Below are positions 544-23,359 of a stretch of DNA of 30,859 nucleotides, piece after piece. The DNA lies in IMG/VR virus record IMGVR_UViG_2740892488_000014; one strand, given 5' to 3'. The position numbers and the translations under genes were made by a program. The notes under the pieces are model-generated. The model was not told the origin of the DNA. It did not search any database and was given only the letters and a program-made list of their open reading frames with translations. The first letter of the stretch is position 1, and the number at the start of each line of letters is the position of its first letter. This DNA comes from a virus (Duplodnaviria; Heunggongvirae; Uroviricota; Caudoviricetes).

Positions 544-1110
544 ATCACAGCCTGTAAGGGCAATGGCGAGTAAGAGTACTGAGTATTTTAATCTCATGAA
601 TTCCCTTTAGAGTAAGGATTGGTTTTTAAGACGCGGTCTGTAATCAGTCCCGAGAGCTACAGTAAACAACGCTGAGCACTGAACGCATCACAGGTAAGGT
701 AAAAGGTGATATCGGCAAAGGCTGTGAAACCTTTAATTCAACAGATGGGAACGGTATGCGCAGGATCCTGTAACGACGCTCCCAAAACCGGAAACCTGTA
801 AGGCATGTTTTCGCTGCTGAACTTAATATACGAACCTGCACTATCATGAACATATTTTATATCGTTATACCCCGAGTGATTGTGCCCGGCAATGGATAGT
901 GTCCTGGAGGAACTATTTCTACTGTAAAAGGTAGATATTTAATTTCAGTTTTGAATTATTCCCTGCTGTTAATAACAATGGCTGTATATGGCACCGAGTA
1001 GGCATTTTTTCGCTTACTGAAGGGCAGCTGTGAGCGAGGAACAGACTTTCCCTACTTCGTTGAGAGTACACCTAGTACAATCAAGGCTAAATGATAAAAA
1101 TATACAAAAT

Positions 1111-1140
1111 ATCATATTTATGATATATATAATGGCATTA
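1111..1140 (+). promoter_or_regulatory. Copy A of a duplicated palindrome/promoter block (ATCATA-TT-TATGAT, TATAAT, ATGGCATTA)
   Basis: Palindrome at 1111-1124, TATAAT at 1128-1133, ATGGCATTA at 1132-1140. The same two blocks recur at 1697-1735, upstream of the next ORF. Confidence 0.4.
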
Positions 1141-1203
1141 ATCTTATTCTTGGATTACGTTGAAAGGGTAATATTATATTTGTGTAACATAGTTTAGATA
1201 ACA

Positions 1204-1629
1204 ATGCCGTTATGGGGGGGGAAAGACATTTCAACATATTAGCTTTGTATCTAACGCTCATGTAGATCTCGATTTTGAACTTAAAGAACAATTATTTTTT
1301 AGAGAGCAAGGTATTTTTGGGGAACAAAAACATAAAGTAATGGAGAGAGGAGAATGTATCAAAAAATCATCGATTTAATTTAGATTGTCCGTATAGTTGG
1401 GGGTAAGTCGAATCGCTGGGCTACATGGAATATTGTGTCAAGTAAAAATATATTTCAATCTTGCAATAACCGATTGTTGAAAATAATGTCAAATCTTAAT
1501 GGTGAATGGGGAGAATATAATAAACATGAGTCGATATTATGCAAATGGATTTAAATATTTTATACCCGAAGACATAGGGTTTCGAGAGTTCGATGAGACT
1601 ACTTTGAATGCTTTCGAATTTGCTGGCTA
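1204..1629 (+). pseudogene. Hypothetical ~140-aa ORF, readable only after about four single-base corrections (G8, A6, G5, G4 runs)
   Basis: ATG at 1204 is followed by G8 (1214-1221). Coding-looking segments sit in successive +1 frames: KTFQHISFVSNAHVDLDFELKEQLFFREQGIFGEQKHKVMERGECIK; HRFNLDCPYSWG; KSNRWATWNIVSSKNIFQSCNNRLLKIMSNLNGEW; NIINMSRYYANGFKYFIPEDIGFREFDETTLNAFEFAG. There is no Shine-Dalgarno and I recognise no family. Confidence 0.25.
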
Positions 1630-1696
1630 AAACATATAGGTTATATCTTACATCTGTTTGTAATGGAGCGTAGATGCGACAAGCTACACCATAATA

Positions 1697-1735
1697 ATCA
1701 TATTATGATATATTGTTAAGTTGTTATGGCATTAA
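1697..1735 (+). promoter_or_regulatory. Copy B of the duplicated palindrome/promoter block (ATCATA-T-TATGAT ... ATGGCATTA)
   Basis: Palindrome at 1697-1709 and ATGGCATTA at 1727-1735, about 50 nt upstream of the ATG at 1785. It is a near-repeat of 1111-1140 with a 12-nt spacer insertion. Confidence 0.4.
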
Positions 1736-1784
1736 ATAAAATTATGTCATTTTGTTAACCAAGCAAGAATCAAAGGACTTTTAG

Positions 1785-2488
1785 ATGGGTACGGCATTAA
1801 TTTCAAGCTTTATTAGTGGTGCAATAGCTATAATCTCTATTGCTATATCTACTTATAATCAGAATAGAATAAACAAGCTCAATGAATCACTGGATGTAAG
1901 GAGAAAACATCAGTACTATATTGAACCGTTAATTCGCTCAGCTTCAGACTTACAAAGCCGTATTTATAATATATTAGAATTGGGGTTCATTGAAGAGTTT
2001 TATCATAATGGGAATAAGCGCCAACAAGATTATGTTATCAACAATACTGTTTTTTCTTTTTTTCCCAGTTTTTTGCATGGACAGAAGCTGCCCGCATAGA
2101 CATTCAATACCTTAGCCTAGAAAAAAAATAAAAAAAATGAGGGAGTTTATTAGATTACAGAACAATATTAACTCATTAATCCAAACAGACGTCTTTGGTC
2201 AGTATTTTATGTTTTTCATAGGAGAGCAGAGAGCTATTGCAGAAAAGATGCTGATATCAACAGATACTGGATTTGATTGCATAGGTTACGGCAGTTTCAC
2301 AAAGGAAAATTGCTTTATCAATGAGCCATTTTTTTTTAGATTTAAACAATGAAGTGATAAATATGACAAGAGATATCGGAATTTATAAAGAAAGGCTAAT
2401 CAGAATACAGCACGCGTTAATCGATTTAATTAATTTTCTTGATCCTGGCATGATTCGATTTGACGGAAAAAAATATGGAAAAATATAA
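1785..2488 (+). CDS. Hypothetical ~233-aa protein with one N-terminal transmembrane helix; interrupted as sequenced at five homopolymer tracts
   Basis: AAGGA Shine-Dalgarno lies 7 nt before the ATG at 1785. The N-terminus GTALISSFISGAIAIISIAIS is hydrophobic. Track ORFs 1785-2099 and 2137-2352 plus the tail to 2488 join when one base is removed from each of two of the T6/T7/T6 runs (2050-2074), from A8 2121-2128, from A8 2130-2137 and from T9 2329-2337. The joined product reads ...NNTVF..FAWTEAARIDIQYLSLEK.KKMREFIRLQ...GEQRAIAEKM...INEPFFLDLNNEVINMTRDIGIYKERLIRIQHALIDLINFLDPGMIRFDGKKYGKI. Confidence 0.55.
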
Positions 2489-2673
2489 CCCAGATGATTC
2501 GTATCAAGGTAAGTTGCTATATGTATCAATTTAATTATGGTTGGGTGAAATTTATGTTAATAGTAGCGGAGGGTTAGTTAAAATATGCTCTCAGTGATTT
2601 TTGGATAGTTCTTTTATTTATCATTGAAAGTAAATATGTATAGCTTCAAGATTTACAAGTGAATCTGTTTATT

Positions 2674-2705
2674 GACAGTCCGCTTATGGCACAGAGCGGA
2701 CTGTC
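2674..2705. terminator. Perfect 11-bp stem-loop (GACAGTCCGCT / AGCGGACTGTC, 10-nt loop) downstream of the AT-rich cassette
   Basis: Inverted repeat read directly from the sequence. It is flanked by T/A-rich sequence (TGTTTATT before, ATATTAAATTT after) with no clean U-tract. Confidence 0.4.
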
Positions 2706-2904
2706 ATATTAAATTTGGCTCCACGCCATAGATGTGTCAGCTCATATCTTATCTAATACACACAATAACTTTCTCATTCTTGGAGAATTATTTTTTTAAG
2801 GGTAGGTGTTGACGTTAGAGCAAAAGAATGGTGATTTTTTTGATGTGTATTACGTTGGAACTGATGGGAATAACTATCTGTTTTCAACGCACTGCTAATT
2901 TATC

Positions 2905-2926
2905 AAGGCCCTTTGATCAGGGCCTT
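2905..2926 (-). terminator. Stem-loop terminator candidate for the ImmA/membrane-protein operon
   Basis: AAGGCCCT-ttgatc-AGGGCCTT (8-bp stem) lies 25 nt beyond the stop of the minus-strand gene that ends at 2951. Confidence 0.5.
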
Positions 2927-2950
2927 CGAAAGACTGTTGGACCGAGAGAG

Positions 2951-3557
2951 TTACTTGCGTTTAAAAAGGTATTTTGTCACGACCAGCACGAGGCCGAATA
3001 CCTCTGTCAAAGTACCGCCCATGTACAACTGTAGTGTTAAATCCTCAAATTCCAGCTTACCTGCGCCGTCGGCAATAAATACACCATTCATTATCAGAAG
3101 TTGGAAAGCAAGGATAATCAGGAACCATTTCCCGTATCGTTTTTTTAGAGCGATTTCTGCTTCAAAATCTTTGTTGTTGAGTTGTTTGCGCTCATGCTCG
3201 GTATCAAGTGAATTCACCTGTTTCACAGATGTGAACTCGGTCAAGATTTTACTCTCAGTACGGGTGACTTGTTGAGAGGGTGTAGCAGTTGGAATTCTTT
3301 TGCTAGACGCAGCTACAGCCATTTTGCGAGCTTCGGCAGCTCTTTTTCTGGCTATTCCGCGAATACGGACAGCCGTTTTTTTTGGGGGCGTGCGAAACCT
3401 TTGGCTGAGGTGAAGCTTCGTCAGGAGACTGAACCGGAGTTTCATCGTCCTCCGGCTCAACCTCTTCTGCTAACTGACGGTGTAGGTTGAGGGAATCCTT
3501 CAGTCTGCGTGCTACTTCCTGTTTGAAACGGCTGTTAAAATCGTCATCCGATGGCAT
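2951..3557 (-). CDS. Hypothetical ~201-aa protein: charged/disordered N-terminal half and a C-terminal two-TM domain; frameshifted as sequenced
   Basis: Track ORFs 3303-3557 and 2951-3460 overlap. They join (..SHAPKK|TAVRIRGIARK..) if one base is removed from the T8 run at 3376-3383. The C-terminus has two hydrophobic helices, WFLIILAFQLLIMNGVFIA and GGTLTEVFGLVLVVTKYLF. The gene starts 9 nt after the ImmA-like stop. Confidence 0.6.
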
Positions 3558-3566
3558 TTTAAAGCG

Positions 3567-4056
3567 TTACCCCAACCTCAAGTTCTTTAAACGATAAGTC
3601 ATCGCATCGTCAGATACGCCAAAATAATGCGCCATTATATAACTTGGTTGACCGTCAGCGTGCAGTTTTCTGACCTCATCTACCGGCATCAGAAGTTCTG
3701 CTGCGAACTTGTTTGCAAAAATTTCATCAGGATGCGTTCCGGCGCTTGCGGTTTCGCCACGTAAATCAACGTACTCATATTCATCGCTATGCGATGCTTG
3801 CCGGGCGATGTAATGCCCCAACTCATGCCCACATGAAAAAACGTTGACGAACTTTGTTGTCATCACTGTTTAGAAAGATCGCTGGATCTTGATCTTTTTG
3901 TTTAATCAGTGCGCCAGAAACTTTCCCAGGAAGATCGGTAATAAAAACATCTAATCCCATGTCGTGAGCAATTTTCGCTGGATCAACAGGGAAACCACGC
4001 CCGCACCAGAACGTGTCCAGCACTCGCCGGGCGTGCTCTCTTGGGTTGGTAGCCAT
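3567..4056 (-). CDS. ImmA/IrrE-family (COG2856, DUF955) zinc metallopeptidase; frameshifted as sequenced
   Basis: Strong GGAGGAG Shine-Dalgarno. The HExxH motif in ...RQRF|SCGHELGHYIARQ... and the downstream FANKFAAELLMP are typical of the family. Track ORFs 3823-4056 and 3567-3866 join when one base is removed from the A6 run at 3836-3841. Confidence 0.8.
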
Positions 4057-4128
4057 AGCTCCTCCAGTTACTGCATTACGATTATTGGTTGAAATATAGA
4101 CAGCATGTTCCGTACCACATTCCTGTAA

Positions 4129-4147
4129 AAGTGCAAATTCTGCACTT
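4129..4147. promoter_or_regulatory. Palindromic operator candidate AAGTGCA-aattc-TGCACTT upstream of the ImmA-like operon
   Basis: A 7-bp inverted repeat sits 70-90 nt upstream of the minus-strand ATG at 4056. It is nested in the outer GTACCA...TGGTAC repeat (4112-4154). It shares GTGCAAAT with 4897-4911. Confidence 0.4.
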
Positions 4148-4432
4148 CTGGTACGATATTAACTGTTAGTAGTAAAGTCTTCCAGATAAATCACTTTAAA
4201 ATCTTGTGAATTGCTTGCTTTTTACGCTGTATTGTGGATGGTTCAATGTTTCCAGTAAAAACATACATGATAATCATGAGTTTAGTGTTTTTTTAGGCGT
4301 CTATATGTTTCTGGAAAATACAGGTCTAACCTGATCTTATCGTTGAGATTTTTTGTACTCAGTATGCGTGAACGATTCGACCAGGTGACTGTGTACGTGA
4401 AGAAGACCGCCCTTAATATTTTAAATGTGCAA

Positions 4433-4448
4433 CCCCTCAGAAGAGGGG
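4433..4448 (-). terminator. Intrinsic terminator candidate after the 77-aa gene
   Basis: CCCCTC-agaa-GAGGGG hairpin 7 nt beyond the stop at 4455. On the minus strand it is followed by TTGCACATTTAAAATATT. Confidence 0.6.
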
Positions 4449-4454
4449 CTACTC

Positions 4455-4688
4455 TCACTTCTGCAGTATCTCGCCAATACCTGCCAGATTCTCGTCCATC
4501 TTGTCACCGTTTTCGATAAGGATGGAGTTGAGCCGATTCAGTTGCATAGCAATTTCAAGTTTGATTAAGGTATCCACCGATACACCAGTTTCTTTTGCTA
4601 ACTTAGTAAGAGCCGCAGCTCGATTGGCTAAATTAAAATCATCGAACTCATAACGACTTCTGCACGGCTGGTTGCCTAACGTACCCAT
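4455..4688 (-). CDS. Hypothetical 77-aa protein with a helix-turn-helix-like segment (possible small DNA-binding regulator)
   Basis: GAGGAA Shine-Dalgarno 7 nt before the ATG. The segment AAALTKLAKETGVSVDTLIKLE looks like an Xre/Cro-type HTH. The ORF is intact and has its own terminator. Confidence 0.6.
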   Translation of the reverse strand: MGTLGNQPCRSRYEFDDFNLANRAAALTKLAKETGVSVDTLIKLEIAMQLNRLNSILIENGDKMDENLAGIGEILQK

Positions 4689-4884
4689 AGTGATTCCTCA
4701 TGATATAAAGACCCAACAATATAAATTACCAGGCACATCATAAGATAGGGTTCCAGCCCATATTTTCAAATATTTGCAAGTATCACCGTTCAGTCTAAAA
4801 AGTTGGATGATGATTTAACGAGCCATAACAAAACCCTGCCTCGGAGGTTTTTTTCTTTTTTATAGAACTCAGCGGCGTGAAAAC

Positions 4885-4923
4885 GAATAATAAATTGTGC
4901 AAATAGTGCAGTTTTTATTATTC
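4885..4923. promoter_or_regulatory. 10-bp perfect inverted repeat (GAATAATAAA / TTTATTATTC) around a GTGCAAATAGTGCAG core, just upstream of the 213-aa gene
   Basis: Read directly from the sequence. It ends 9 nt before the ATG at 4933 and overlaps the region just 5' of the GAGG Shine-Dalgarno. The core resembles GTGCAAATTCTGCAC at 4131-4145. Confidence 0.4.
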
Positions 4924-4932
4924 GAGGTAATT

Positions 4933-5574
4933 ATGAAAACCTTCTATGAGGACTGGCCTGAAACTTTCGTTAGCCGGTTAGATATGTTACGGGCGTTGGA
5001 TGATCGCGGTTCGACCCGGAGGCTCTATCTTGAACGGACCGGGGCAATATTTGACGCTCTGGCAGAAGAGATACGTACAGTCGTTGCCGGGCATCCTGAA
5101 ATCGACGTGAGTGAACTTGATATCGGGCCGCTGTATCGCTATTACAAACGTGGAGAAAAGGGGAATCCGCTGGCTGACTTACTTATTGAGTTGGCTCCAC
5201 CAACTTGTGAACGGGTTCGTATATCTCCTGAAGTGTACATAATCCCGTATCTGTTTTTTGCACTGTTGATAGCGCAAGGCGCTGACAACGATGCCCGCGA
5301 TTTTTTCAATATGATGATGCGACCGTTAATCATCGCCTACCGTTTCAAACAACTGGCGCGATACCTGGGAACAAAGGGCGGAGGACGACCACAGCACAGA
5401 TTAAAAAGCGAAGCCATTGAACTGGCTGATCGTTTTTTTACTGAAAACCCGACAGCGCCATTATCGCGTGGCGTGCAATACATATCCGGTATTTTTGTGG
5501 CGAAATACTCTGACCCACCTGCAGCGTCGACGATTAGAAAATGGTTAATTCCAATTTACAGGAGTGATAAATAA
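4933..5574 (+). CDS. Hypothetical 213-aa protein; the C-terminal ~50 aa look like a DNA-binding HTH
   Basis: I prefer the ATG at 4933 (MKTFYEDW), which has GAGG 6 nt upstream, over the track's GTG at 4897. The C-terminus GGRPQHRLKSEAIELADRFF...PPAASTIRKWL resembles resolvase/terminase-type HTH tails. I recognise no family. Confidence 0.6.
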   Translation: MKTFYEDWPETFVSRLDMLRALDDRGSTRRLYLERTGAIFDALAEEIRTVVAGHPEIDVSELDIGPLYRYYKRGEKGNPLADLLIELAPPTCERVRISPEVYIIPYLFFALLIAQGADNDARDFFNMMMRPLIIAYRFKQLARYLGTKGGGRPQHRLKSEAIELADRFFTENPTAPLSRGVQYISGIFVAKYSDPPAASTIRKWLIPIYRSDK

Positions 5575-5580
5575 TGACCA

Positions 5581-5611
5581 TAAACGGTTTAATCCCCTAT
5601 AAAACCGTTTA
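5581..5611 (+). terminator. Stem-loop after the 213-aa gene (TAAACGGTTT / AAACCGTTTA, 10-bp stem)
   Basis: Perfect 10-bp inverted repeat starting 7 nt after the stop. It is followed by ATAAAATT, which is not a clean U-tract. Confidence 0.4.
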
Positions 5612-5673
5612 ATAAAATTCACGACGTGAATATAATTGTTCATTATTCCCTCATTGTATTTGGCGTTATGACA

Positions 5674-5722
5674 AATGCCATAAAATACTGTATAAATATG
5701 GGTCTTCCCCGATCATGGTGGG
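5674..5722. repeat. Left (transposase-distal) terminal inverted repeat of the ISL3-family unit
   Basis: AATGCCAtaaaataCTGTATAaaTATGGGTCTTCCCCgatcaTGGTGGG. It overlaps a hairpin, GTCTTCCC (5702-5709) / GGGAAGAC (5720-5727), just past the transposase stop. Confidence 0.6.
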
Positions 5723-5727
5723 AAGAC

Positions 5728-6948
5728 TCAGTACGCCATATTCAGTTTCCCATAGTGGAACATAACTCCCAGTTTAAAGCGTTCCCGGTTTCGGTATCCC
5801 CTGGCCTTTATCCTCAGCAGTCTGATCTTGCTGTTCAGCGCCTCCGCATTTCCATTCGAGACGCGATGACGCATTGCATTCAGTATTCCGTATAACCGTT
5901 TTTTAATGGTTTTCGCTGCGTTTTTCATCATCGGCACATCACATTCAGACGCCAGCGATATCCACTGCAACCAGTCATTCCTGCGTTCTGTGCTCCAGGG
6001 GCGATCCCAGATATTTTTTGCCAGCTCTTTCAGTGTCCAGCACTGGCTTGTCTGTTGCATCTGTTCCCGCAACCACATCAGCTTTTCCTGCCGGGACTCA
6101 GTCATCCATTTGTCGCTGTACTGCCACAGGAAGCGGGTACCTTTGGCCTGACGACGACTTTCAACAGGGAGGTGCGGATGTTCATTCTGGCGGGTTTTAT
6201 CAACCACTTCGCCCAGTTGCTTCGCCACATGGAAGCGATCGAAGGCGATTTTCTCGACCGCATTGGGTAAATGGATACGCGCTGCTCTTATATAGCCCGC
6301 ATTCATGTCCATCGACAGTGTTTTGATGGCCAACAACTGACTGTCAGTAAGCGAACGGAGATAGCTGGCAAGACTCTCTGTGCCACGATCATCGGTTAAT
6401 GCCAGTGCCCGCCCGTCGCGATCAGATACCACGGTTATATACCTATGCCCTTTTTTAAAGGCGACTTCGTCTACATTCATATGACGCACTGATAAAGGCT
6501 TTTTAATCCGCGACAGGCCTCGCTTAACCGCGCGGGTCATGATGCCGTCAACGGCATTCCAGCTAAGTTTAAGTTGTTTTCTGACCGCATCAACGGTGCT
6601 GATTTTAAGCCATGAGAGCACGAACGATTCGAACAGCAGAGTGTACCGACTGCCGGAACCTGCCCACGGTACAGGCAGAGTCTGGCAGCCATGCTCCGGG
6701 CACATAACGCGGGGAACATCGGCTTCTACTAATGTCATGAACTGGCAGGTATCAAGGTGGCGCCATTTACGATGTCGGTGATCGTGAACAGAACAGGATT
6801 TCCTGCAGGTCGGACAGGTTAACTGAGTATTTTCAGCAATTCCGACTGTAACAGTAACGGAACCTGCATTTTCATCGAGGGTAAGGGATTTAACCTGCCA
6901 TGGTGCAGTCAGGTTAAGGATATGGGCATAGAGGGATTTTTCGTCCAT
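5728..6948 (-). CDS. ISL3-family transposase (N-terminal zinc-finger region plus DDE domain)
   Basis: Intact 406-aa ORF. CPTC...H..HR and CPEHGC zinc-binding motifs, then ...VDEVAFKKGHRYITVV...MDMNAGYI...NGNAEALNSKIRLLRIKARGYRNRERF, which is typical of ISL3 transposases. Confidence 0.9.
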   Translation of the reverse strand: MDEKSLYAHILNLTAPWQVKSLTLDENAGSVTVTVGIAENTQLTCPTCRKSCSVHDHRHRKWRHLDTCQFMTLVEADVPRVMCPEHGCQTLPVPWAGSGSRYTLLFESFVLSWLKISTVDAVRKQLKLSWNAVDGIMTRAVKRGLSRIKKPLSVRHMNVDEVAFKKGHRYITVVSDRDGRALALTDDRGTESLASYLRSLTDSQLLAIKTLSMDMNAGYIRAARIHLPNAVEKIAFDRFHVAKQLGEVVDKTRQNEHPHLPVESRRQAKGTRFLWQYSDKWMTESRQEKLMWLREQMQQTSQCWTLKELAKNIWDRPWSTERRNDWLQWISLASECDVPMMKNAAKTIKKRLYGILNAMRHRVSNGNAEALNSKIRLLRIKARGYRNRERFKLGVMFHYGKLNMAY

Positions 6949-6966
6949 ATAATTTCATTCTGAAGC

Positions 6967-7485
6967 TTACTTTAAACTGATATTATTATTTTTTGCCCAC
7001 TTTCTTAATCTTCCATTAGCGTTGGCGTAAGGCGAAGATGTGTTAAATGAGATCATTCTCCCCATCGTCCATTTTGTGTACCATGGTCTTCCATACAAAA
7101 TATCATCGGTACGATCATTAATAAGGTTCACAATCTCATTTTTTACAGTCTGAAGTTCAGCTACTAACAACTCATAACTTAACTCACTGTAATCTGAGTA
7201 AAATTTTTGAGCAAGAAGGCCAAGCTGATTCCATTTATAGCCAGTTTCCGGAAAATCGACAGGCAGACCTTTAGCATCAGAAGCGATCCACTTTACAACA
7301 AGAGCATTCCATCCAAGCAGATACGAAACGAGATCACGAACACTCATCTCCGTTCCTTTGGCGTGTCCGTCCATTGATTTATCTGAAGTAATTTCTGGTG
7401 GGATTGTGTTGAGGTAACTAATTAATTTACTAAAATTTTTATCAATAGCTAAAAGCAGTTCAGCTTTTGTTTGCGGCACACTCAT
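6967..7485 (-). CDS. ClbS/DfsB-family four-helix-bundle protein (DUF1706; colibactin self-protection homologue)
   Basis: 172 aa, GAGGG Shine-Dalgarno. From memory it aligns end to end with pks-island ClbS. Shared blocks are GHAKGT, LVSYLxGW (Tyr at position 55), FPExGxKWNxLGxLAQKFYxDY and LYGxPWYxKWTxGRMIxFNTxSPYxNAxGRL. Confidence 0.85.
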   Translation of the reverse strand: MSVPQTKAELLLAIDKNFSKLISYLNTIPPEITSDKSMDGHAKGTEMSVRDLVSYLLGWNALVVKWIASDAKGLPVDFPETGYKWNQLGLLAQKFYSDYSELSYELLVAELQTVKNEIVNLINDRTDDILYGRPWYTKWTMGRMISFNTSSPYANANGRLRKWAKNNNISLK

Positions 7486-7513
7486 AAGAATTCCCTCTCA
7501 TGTAAAAAGAGAC

Positions 7514-7541
7514 ACCATAAAGGTACTGTGTGGTGTTTGAA
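7514..7541 (-). promoter_or_regulatory. Candidate sigma70 promoter for the clbS-like/transposase transcript, just inside the right IR
   Basis: On the minus strand, TTCAAA (7541-7536), a 16-nt spacer and TATGGT (7519-7514), about 30 nt upstream of the ATG at 7485. Confidence 0.3.
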
Positions 7542-7561
7542 AATCGCTCAATTATGTACCA

Positions 7562-7607
7562 CCCACCACAACAGGGGAAGACCCATAAATATACAGGTTG
7601 TGGCATT
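7562..7607. repeat. Right terminal inverted repeat of the ISL3-family unit
   Basis: The reverse complement reads AATGCCAcaacCTGTATAttTATGGGTCTTCCCCtgttgTGGTGGG, which matches 5674-5722. Confidence 0.6.
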
Positions 7608-22732: not shown

Positions 22733-23359
22733 ATGACAAGTCAAAGCGTACTGCCTCCGAACGCAATAACCCCTGAGAGGGCGCTTGAGGTTGTTTTATC
22801 TCACGTCGGCGATCTGCCTGGCGATATTCGAATTATTAAAAATCCCGATTTGTGCCCTGCAAATCTGTTGCCGTGGCTGGCGTGGGAGTACGCGGTCACC
22901 TACTGGAACCCCGACTGGAGTGAGCAGCAAAAACGCGAAATTATTAAAGCAGCTGCGTGGCAGAATAAGCACCGCGGAACGCGTGGAGCTGTTGAACGAG
23001 CGTTATTAACTGTTGGCTTTGAGAGCAAAATGAGAGAGTGGTTTGAAGCCACGCCCAGGGACGACCCGTATACATTCGCAATTAAAATATATCTGCTAAA
23101 AAGCATGGGGTTAGATTTAGAACTATTGAATACATTTATTGCACAAATATTTGATGCAAAAAATTGTCGTTCCTTATTAAAAGAAATAAATTTCGAAACG
23201 GGTGTCGATGGTGAGTTTTTTATAGCCGGTACACCTTACGCGAAAATAGGCGTAAACGTCCCAGCAGACGGCGACGGCGGTGTAAAAATTAACGGCGGGC
23301 TATATATATCGGGCTCACCAATTGTTAGTTTAAATGTGGAGATAGGGCCAAATGGCTGA
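22733..23359 (+). CDS. Baseplate/tail-fibre attachment protein (P2 gpI-like)
   Basis: NPDLCPANLLPWLAWEYAV...W matches P2 gpI NPDTCPANLLPWLAWAFSVDRW. Confidence 0.88.
   Translation: MTSQSVLPPNAITPERALEVVLSHVGDLPGDIRIIKNPDLCPANLLPWLAWEYAVTYWNPDWSEQQKREIIKAAAWQNKHRGTRGAVERALLTVGFESKMREWFEATPRDDPYTFAIKIYLLKSMGLDLELLNTFIAQIFDAKNCRSLLKEINFETGVDGEFFIAGTPYAKIGVNVPADGDGGVKINGGLYISGSPIVSLNVEIGPNG

Follow-up and report, generated by a model that had tools for sequence, protein, structure and literature searches.

A probable RosmerTA-type toxin-antitoxin module, pairing an M78 peptidase with a two-helix membrane protein, on a prophage of Escherichia coli

Introduction

What does a stand-alone peptidase of the ImmA/IrrE (M78) family do on a prophage when the gene beside it encodes a small membrane protein? 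The question is raised by the IMG/VR virus record IMGVR_UViG_2740892488_000014, a Caudoviricetes sequence of 30,859 nucleotides (here called the window, meaning the whole stretch of DNA analysed), in which two consecutive genes on the minus strand, at 2951-4056, encode an M78 peptidase followed by a protein with two transmembrane (TM) helices. In an initial annotation made from the letters of the sequence, the pair was described as a peptidase-gated toxin or exclusion candidate lying where lambdoid phages keep rex. The analysis reported here finds it probable that the pair is a prophage-borne toxin-antitoxin (TA) and defence module of the RosmerTA type, belonging to the RmrA(D25)/RmrT(D5) subtype. 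The pair is then a new enterobacterial member of RosmerTA (D25/D5), not a new system and not an analogue of rex by position.

The analysis gives a probable identity, that of a RosmerTA defence module, to two genes so far annotated only as a metallo-endopeptidase and a hypothetical protein. About 8% of complete Escherichia coli genomes carry the pair, including at least one with O25b:H4-ST131 in its title. The models of PADLOC 2.0.0 miss the pair as RosmerTA, giving no match to RmrT and naming CapP as the best match of the peptidase. With about 700 representatives at 50% identity, distributed over Proteobacteria, Firmicutes-type phage contexts, and actinophages, the D25/D5 subtype forms a coherent family in which the pairing is strict. 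The E. coli pair also offers a model in its native host, as against the Gordonia pair, which was tested heterologously.

Reading frames of the pair

The elements from which the reading of the locus starts are the following, in window coordinates:

3567..4056, minus strand: RmrA-like stand-alone M78 (ImmA/IrrE) zinc peptidase gene, ATG 4056-4054, TAA 3569-3567
2951..3557, minus strand: putative RmrT(D5)-like two-TM toxin gene, ATG 3557-3555, TAA 2953-2951
4061..4065, minus strand: GGAGG Shine-Dalgarno sequence, seen in the sequence 4 nt ahead of the peptidase ATG
3836..3841, minus strand: T6 homopolymer (T5 in the reference) breaking the peptidase open reading frame (ORF), a read error by alignment to the reference locus
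3376..3383, minus strand: A8 homopolymer (A7 in the reference) breaking the toxin ORF, a read error by the same alignment

The toxin gene starts 9 nt past the stop of the peptidase gene on the same strand. In the window as given both genes are interrupted, the peptidase gene being split into ORFs at 3823-4056 and 3567-3866 and the toxin gene into ORFs at 3303-3557 and 2951-3460, which could mean that both frameshifts are genuine and that the module is dead in this strain. This explanation is very improbable in view of an alignment with the E. coli SK1144 chromosome (locus L001): over the 5,156 bp of window 544-5699 there were no substitutions and nine one-base differences, all nine in the length of a homopolymer, with neighbouring genes broken in the window as well. 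The pattern indicates unpolished long-read sequence across the window. Because all differences from SK1144 are homopolymer lengths with no substitutions, and because more than 430 complete E. coli genomes have both genes intact, the two frameshifts, on which the initial annotation had called for confirmation, are judged to be long-read errors and not decay; the strong Shine-Dalgarno sequence that it described is present, at 4061-4065.

With one extra T removed, the peptidase is identical to WP_000224749.1, a protein of 162 aa that is intact in the reference annotation and named 'ImmA/IrrE family metallo-endopeptidase', and with one extra A removed the second protein is WP_001138663.1, of 201 aa, also intact in the reference and named 'hypothetical protein'. 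Of 5,426 complete E. coli genomes, 453 carry the 1.5-kb module stretch, without exception on the chromosome, and 419 have it at 99% identity or above; at least 80% of the stretch is present in 431 of the 5,426. The nine homopolymer differences span window 1222-4854, where a neighbouring gene for a 232-aa hypothetical protein is also fragmented (1785-2099, 2137-2352, and 2321-2488).

Relationship to RosmerTA

RosmerTA was validated in Gordonia phage Kita by Ernits et al. (2023, PNAS, PMC10440598) as the pair RmrA(D25), which is YP_009301393.1 and annotated Peptidase_M78, and RmrT(D5), which is YP_009301394.1 and annotated 'Transmembrane'. In the Kita genome (KU963257) a peptidase and a protein with C-terminal TM helices are encoded by gp32 (178 aa) and gp33 (119 aa), which overlap by 4 nt, and an exact-sequence look-up identified gp32 as YP_009301393.1. 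Over 157 residues, the peptidase of the window and Kita gp32 share 43% identity (E 8e-42). The toxin is 30% identical to gp33 over 63 residues by BLASTP (E 4e-7), and comparison of a profile of its family with gp33 by hhalign gave a probability of 87.5% (E 3.6e-6) over 74 columns that include both TM helices and a conserved Glu. The order of the genes in Kita is the same as in E. coli. The likeness between the toxin and gp33 is thin when taken alone; together with the orthology of the peptidases and the shared gene arrangement, the two pairs are taken to be homologous on the strength of these comparisons. The initial proposal of a RosmerTA-like peptidase with a membrane effector is borne out in that both proteins have homologues in Kita RmrA and RmrT and are linked in every locus inspected.

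Kita RosmerTA and the E. coli pair share a stand-alone M78 antitoxin lacking a helix-turn-helix (HTH) domain (178 and 162 aa, respectively), followed by a two-TM hairpin protein with an intramembrane Glu, and both pairs are carried by temperate phages. They differ in the phylum of the host and in that the E. coli toxin is extended by a conserved helix at its N-terminus and by a linker of low complexity, about 85 residues long. In E. coli, Kita RmrT halts translation, transcription, and replication, the membrane being depolarised and permeabilised within minutes, and the Kita pair protects E. coli against a few myoviruses of the BASEL collection, given as Bas54 and Bas59 in the text and as Bas54 and Bas60 in the figure legend (PMC10440598).

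Canonical RosmerTA (Millman et al. 2022; PADLOC models) resembles the E. coli pair in being a two-gene TA/defence module with a zinc-peptidase antitoxin and a variable toxin of unknown function. It differs in that the E. coli peptidase matches only the peptidase part of the RmrA models and no RmrT model matches the toxin. Proteins of the RmrA node often carry an N-terminal HTH (Ernits et al., PMC10440598); such a domain is common but not obligatory, since the validated Kita RmrA of 178 aa also has none.

Other candidates for comparison were set aside. Kita gp44/gp45 were first taken for the published pair; PADLOC and Pfam gave no support for this, and an ORF scan together with the accessions led to gp32/gp33. 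The gp44 gene, for a second and unrelated HExxH mini-protein (138 aa, with HETFH), lies directly downstream of gp45, a 315-aa HTH 'immunity repressor' (locus L046, 12741-14167), and this couple looks like an ImmA/ImmR arrangement. The prophage TA of E101 (Rousset et al.) consists of proteins different from those described here, and GndRX, considered as related literature, is irrelevant to this pair, as are a preprint on component modularity and a paper on P2/P4 hotspots.

Linkage of the two genes across genomes

In all 30 loci inspected, an M78 gene stands directly upstream of the two-TM gene, so that the adjacency survey proposed in the initial annotation came out in favour of linkage. The loci span Proteobacteria, a Desulfuromonas metagenome-assembled genome (MAG), Firmicutes-type phage or genome contexts, and an actinophage, and comprise:

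Species-representative genomes, upstream M78 gene in 9 of 9: Escherichia, Leclercia, Buttiauxella, Gallibacterium, Thalassotalea, Microbulbifer, the Desulfuromonas MAG, and others
Full-length viral contigs, upstream M78 gene in 13 of 13
Loci found from the peptidase side, upstream M78 gene in 3 of 3
Remote family members, upstream M78 gene in 5 of 5, two of them in Firmicutes-type contexts

For the 25 pairs in which it was measured, the gap between peptidase and toxin genes is -23 to +12 nt, and matrices of pairwise identity for the peptidases and for the toxin cores are correlated with r = 0.82, a value reached in none of 5,000 permutations. The pairing is far beyond chance and the two genes co-diversify. 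Flanking genes vary from locus to locus, being prophage cargo, P4-like or integrase islands, a lysis cassette, or housekeeping genes, and the conserved unit is therefore the two genes alone. A gene for a 77-aa protein (phrog_5550, function unknown; window 4455-4688, minus strand), about 400 bp upstream of the peptidase gene and followed by a terminator-like hairpin at 4321-4333, is placed outside the system because it is not conserved beside homologous modules.

The same survey bears on a reading modelled on ImmA, in which the peptidase would be an anti-repressor that cleaves a short cI-like repressor and so brings about induction, the membrane protein sequestering or regulating the peptidase. 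ImmA/ImmR, IrrE/DdrO, and CapP/CapH work in this way, and the cI-like repressor of the SK1144 prophage, at only 130 aa, probably has no self-cleavage domain, judged by its length. Neither the window nor any of the 30 homologous loci has an HTH gene beside the pair, however; many of these loci are not prophages, the repressor gene lies about 9.4 kb away, the prophage also encodes an ORF6N-domain protein that is a candidate antirepressor, and the invariant partner of the peptidase is the two-TM protein, in a pair whose homologue acts in TA and defence. Anti-repression is accordingly a very unlikely role. ImmA/ImmR of ICEBs1 and of prophages shares the peptidase family and the HExxH...E motif with the E. 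coli pair, from which it differs in that the invariant neighbour of the E. coli peptidase is a membrane protein instead of an HTH repressor and in that the pair has no tie to an immunity region.

Relics of the 3' end of the toxin gene, covering about its last 25 codons at about 90% DNA identity, were seen at L001 16690-16767 and in the viral loci L024-L032 (6001-6084 in L024). They stand just downstream of other genes, directly after an LprI-family gene in L001, L026-L029, L031, and L032, and in-frame stops are found upstream of or within them. Such relics have the appearance of scars, left where cassettes were replaced at a hotspot for cargo. Both a scar and the intact module are found in the reference prophage, while the scar is missing from the window because of truncation by an insertion sequence (IS). 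No alternative cargo was visible at the site of the module, the upstream flank occurring in 449 genomes and the module in 453, at that sensitivity.

The peptidase

The peptidase matches Pfam Peptidase_M78 (PF06114) at residues 32-157 with 64.9 bits against a cut-off of 22, and the Pfam search revealed neither an HTH nor any other domain beside it, in line with the stand-alone ImmA/IrrE peptidase bearing HELGH and no fused HTH that was first described. The zinc site consists of HELGH (H77, E78, and H81) and the downstream E111. Among 23 diverse homologues H77 and H81 are invariant and E78, hence HExxH, is kept in 22, while E111 is invariant across 52 closer sequences. A remote homologue that is also paired with a two-TM gene (L045, 608-1120) has HMISH in place of HExxH and thus no catalytic Glu, which suggests that some family members may neutralise the toxin without catalysis.

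An AlphaFold2 model built on the 52-sequence alignment has a mean predicted local distance difference test score (pLDDT) of 90.6. The closest solved structures are CapP (7t5t, E 8.9e-7) and then IrrE/PprI, with which the model overlaps only in the N-terminal peptidase and helical part, to a target-normalised structural similarity score (TMt) of 0.41 of 7t5t. CapP is also the best match in PADLOC (2.4e-25), over positions 3-151 of a 242-position profile. The RmrA models of PADLOC, which are 357-400 positions long, match the peptidase domain only (about positions 145-294), with values of up to 5.8e-12.

CapP/CapH and IrrE/DdrO have the same M78 fold as the peptidase of the window, and CapP is its best PADLOC and structural match; the E. 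coli peptidase differs from them in lacking the GAF domain, the loop of the cysteine switch, and an HTH repressor as partner. CapP and IrrE sense single-stranded DNA (ssDNA) in a groove between the peptidase and GAF domains, and a cysteine switch has been described for many CapP proteins (PMC13228613). In the 162-aa peptidase the GAF domain is missing and the stretch from H81 to E111 is free of Cys, and therefore a CapP-type ssDNA groove and cysteine switch cannot exist in it.

The membrane protein

The second protein agrees with its first description, as a protein of about 201 aa encoded 9 nt after the peptidase gene, with a charged, low-complexity N-terminal half and a C-terminal pair of TM helices: it has 201 aa, and its AlphaFold2 model shows a helix at residues 4-32, disorder at 33-119, and helices at 120-164 and 172-199. 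The two TM helices are located as follows:

3062..3130, minus strand: TM helix 1 of the toxin (residues 143-165, approximately), in which the polar Q152 and N157 are conserved (AlphaFold2 and alignment)
2960..3043, minus strand: TM helix 2 of the toxin, about residues 172-199, with the near-invariant LTLQLYMGGTLTEVFGLVLVVTKYLF (AlphaFold2 and alignments)

The intramembrane Glu of TM helix 2, E185, is present in 25 of 25 aligned homologues. Across phyla only the C-terminal core is kept; its invariant positions are N157, T182, E185, G188, and an LF motif, with Q152 conserved at 90% or above. Members from Enterobacterales share an N-terminal helix (residues about 10-33), joined to the conserved last 90 residues by a linker that differs greatly from one protein to another, both in length and in sequence; outside this order, the alignment does not retain the N-terminal helix. 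Clusters of Lys and Arg ahead of TM helix 1 and past TM helix 2, with an acidic short loop between the helices, point to a hairpin with both termini inside the cell (N-in/C-in), the long N-terminal part being presumably cytoplasmic. The invariant Glu and the conserved Gln and Asn of the core are concrete residues with which to probe the control of a membrane pore by an M78 peptidase.

No Pfam or NCBIfam family covers the two-TM protein, which matches phrog_5346, a family of unknown function. A Foldseek search of BFVD with its model, mostly helical hairpin and disorder, returned nothing with E<1. Searching the phage collection with the toxin by tblastn gave no matches, and the single phage record that includes the locus stops inside the peptidase gene. 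The family nonetheless forms 85 clusters at 90% identity among 5.8 billion proteins and, at 50% identity, 703 representatives (E up to 1e-3) or 185 (E up to 1e-10), all of them unnamed, small proteins of roughly 50-240 aa. An IS1 element interrupts the module stretch in five complete genomes; in the one inspected, E. coli AR_451 (L048, NZ_CP030337.1 1672417-1675291), it lies inside the toxin gene near the boundary of the two TM helices and leaves the peptidase gene intact.

A small hairpin protein of this kind invites two further readings. The N-in/C-in two-TM hairpin resembles class II holins, and one remote homologous pair directly follows holin and endolysin genes, as might be expected of a device that, like a holin and antiholin, times lysis. 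In the reference prophage, however, the holin and endolysin genes lie on the other strand about 4-5 kb from the module, which runs against the late and lysis genes; moreover, the pair occurs in loci that are not of phage origin, Pfam gives no match to a holin family, and the toxin is always coupled to the peptidase, so that a role in lysis timing is extremely improbable. The other reading is superinfection exclusion without abortive infection, in which the membrane protein would block DNA entry or a membrane step in the manner of Sie or Imm proteins and the peptidase would tune its level. That a small inner-membrane protein is encoded by a temperate phage against the late genes would suit this, as would the narrow defence spectrum of the homologue. 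Expression of the homologue leads to immediate growth arrest and pore formation, however, Sie proteins have no obligatory peptidase, and the pair is also found outside prophages, beside housekeeping genes, all of which makes exclusion quite unlikely.

Proposed mechanism

In the RosmerTA reading, the toxin would be a small inner-membrane protein forming an N-in/C-in helical hairpin, whose conserved polar face, made up of Q152 and N157 in TM helix 1 and T182 and E185 in TM helix 2, probably lines an oligomeric channel. Such a pore would depolarise and permeabilise the membrane, transcription, translation, and replication would stop, and phage growth would be aborted. In uninfected lysogens, the minimal M78 peptidase, encoded upstream and translationally coupled, would restrain the toxin, and infection by certain phages would, by analogy with the homologue, break this control.

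Neutralisation of the toxin may proceed by proteolysis of its cytoplasmic N-terminal or juxtamembrane region and not by mere binding, as the conservation of the catalytic motif suggests. The obvious candidate substrate would be the cytoplasmic tail of the toxin, especially its conserved juxtamembrane segment, and the enterobacterial toxins might gain autoinhibition or a sensing function from their N-terminal helix and linker. We know of no TA class for which control of a toxin by site-specific proteolysis through the antitoxin has been demonstrated. A more specific version of this scheme, in which the peptidase is an enzymatic antitoxin that cleaves the toxin tail at a defined site, the linker serves as a decoy or sensor, and phage products block cleavage and thereby free the pore, can be put forward only tentatively and is doubtful as a whole.

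The relation between the two proteins could also be the reverse, with a phage cue causing the peptidase to cut off the N-terminal helix and linker and so release an autoinhibited pore-former, much as proteases activate bacterial gasdermins or as ImmA, CapP, and IrrE peptidases cleave in response to a signal. An N-terminal helix followed by a long disordered linker, as found in the enterobacterial toxins and missing from the Kita toxin, would make an ideal protease substrate, related peptidases are activated by signals (PMC13228613), and the catalytic motif is conserved. Yet the homologous toxin is toxic alone and the peptidase lowers its toxicity (PMC10440598), the N-terminal helix is conserved only within Enterobacterales, and neither the GAF domain nor the cysteine-switch loop used for ssDNA sensing in CapP and IrrE is present in the peptidase; activation by the peptidase is thus unlikely. 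Of the 'peptidase-gated' toxin initially proposed, the link to the peptidase stands and the gating is ambiguous, the homologous peptidase being an antitoxin and not an activator of a toxin that is toxic alone (PMC10440598).

Several points weigh against the RosmerTA reading. The likeness of the toxin to Kita RmrT is low and restricted to hydrophobic helices, where composition inflates scores, and on the sequences compared the RmrT call would rest partly on synteny; the RmrT models of PADLOC gave no match to the two-TM protein at E up to 1. The Kita toxin, at 119 aa, is 82 residues shorter at its N-terminus, so regulation may differ. The Kita peptidase neutralises its toxin only partly, and AlphaFold gave no model of the Kita complex, with a pDockQ of 0.05 (PMC10440598). 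That the E. coli pair would behave like the Kita pair is inferred by analogy. The IS1 insertions fit either a costly toxin that is occasionally counter-selected or a dispensable gene, and upstream of the peptidase gene no sigma-70 consensus turned up in a promoter scan.

Position in the prophage and regulatory elements

In the reference prophage of SK1144 the genes run from those for a cI-like repressor, a cro-like protein, and a YdaT-family protein through replication genes, nin-like small genes, and an ORF6N-domain gene to an LprI-family gene, a hypothetical gene, the peptidase-toxin pair, the 77-aa gene, and two hypothetical genes, which are followed by DUF1367 and DUF1364 genes, Q, and the lysis and head genes. 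About 9.4 kb, including the replication and nin-like genes, separate the module (L001 12245-13348) from the cI-like gene (22788-23180). It was right that the module is oriented opposite to the late genes and in the same direction as cI. Its placement at the 'rex position' did not hold, since the pair is neither adjacent to nor co-transcribed with the cI-like gene and is situated between the nin-like/ORF6N region and Q. Lambda RexAB shares with the E. coli module its location on a prophage, the orientation of cI, and depolarisation leading to abortive infection, which would be expected of the module. The two are otherwise unlike: they have no sequence relationship, no Rex model is among the PADLOC matches, the cytoplasmic partner in E. 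coli is a peptidase and not a RexA-like sensor, and the module is not beside cI.

Two inverted repeats flank the module:

4127..4149, minus strand: imperfect palindrome AGAAGTGCA-GAATT-TGCACTTTT, about 70-90 nt upstream of the peptidase start, a possible operator
2905..2926, minus strand: hairpin of 7-8 G+C-rich pairs with no U-tract, 25 nt past the toxin stop

Both had been cited, with the Shine-Dalgarno sequence, as signs of a self-contained transcription unit, and both exist. The hairpin, with a minimum free energy of -15.5 kcal/mol in a 61-nt stretch and a z of -1.24 against shuffled sequences, is unremarkable, has no U-tract, and was not called by a terminator scan. The palindrome is specific to the Escherichia lineage, occurring in the window and in L002, missing upstream of 16 other homologous modules, and shared only with Escherichia whittamii; no conserved operator or LexA box was found upstream of the 18 homologous modules. 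The module as a self-contained transcription unit is plausible and no more than that.

The window begins with a fragment of an IS3-type transposase (1-543, with rve domains), which ends the prophage where the LprI-family gene of SK1144 starts. As this fragment truncates the prophage at base 543, the immunity and replication regions are absent from the window. The prophage (window 7585-30859; L001 and L037) is a mosaic of lambdoid early, Q, and lysis genes, a lambda-like head, and a P2-like contractile tail. Relative to SK1144, window 5700-7584 is an insertion between the gene for a 225-aa hypothetical protein of the prophage and the DUF1367 gene; it contains an ISL3-family transposase gene (5728-6948, minus strand) and a DUF1706 (ClbS/DfsB-like) gene (6967-7485, minus strand), and may be an IS with a passenger gene. 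A 34-nt stretch at about 5298-5331 matches perfectly an annotated CRISPR array of E. coli LI60C3 (NZ_CP136900.1 3686431-3686464), and a native E. coli spacer appears to target the gene for the 225-aa hypothetical protein.

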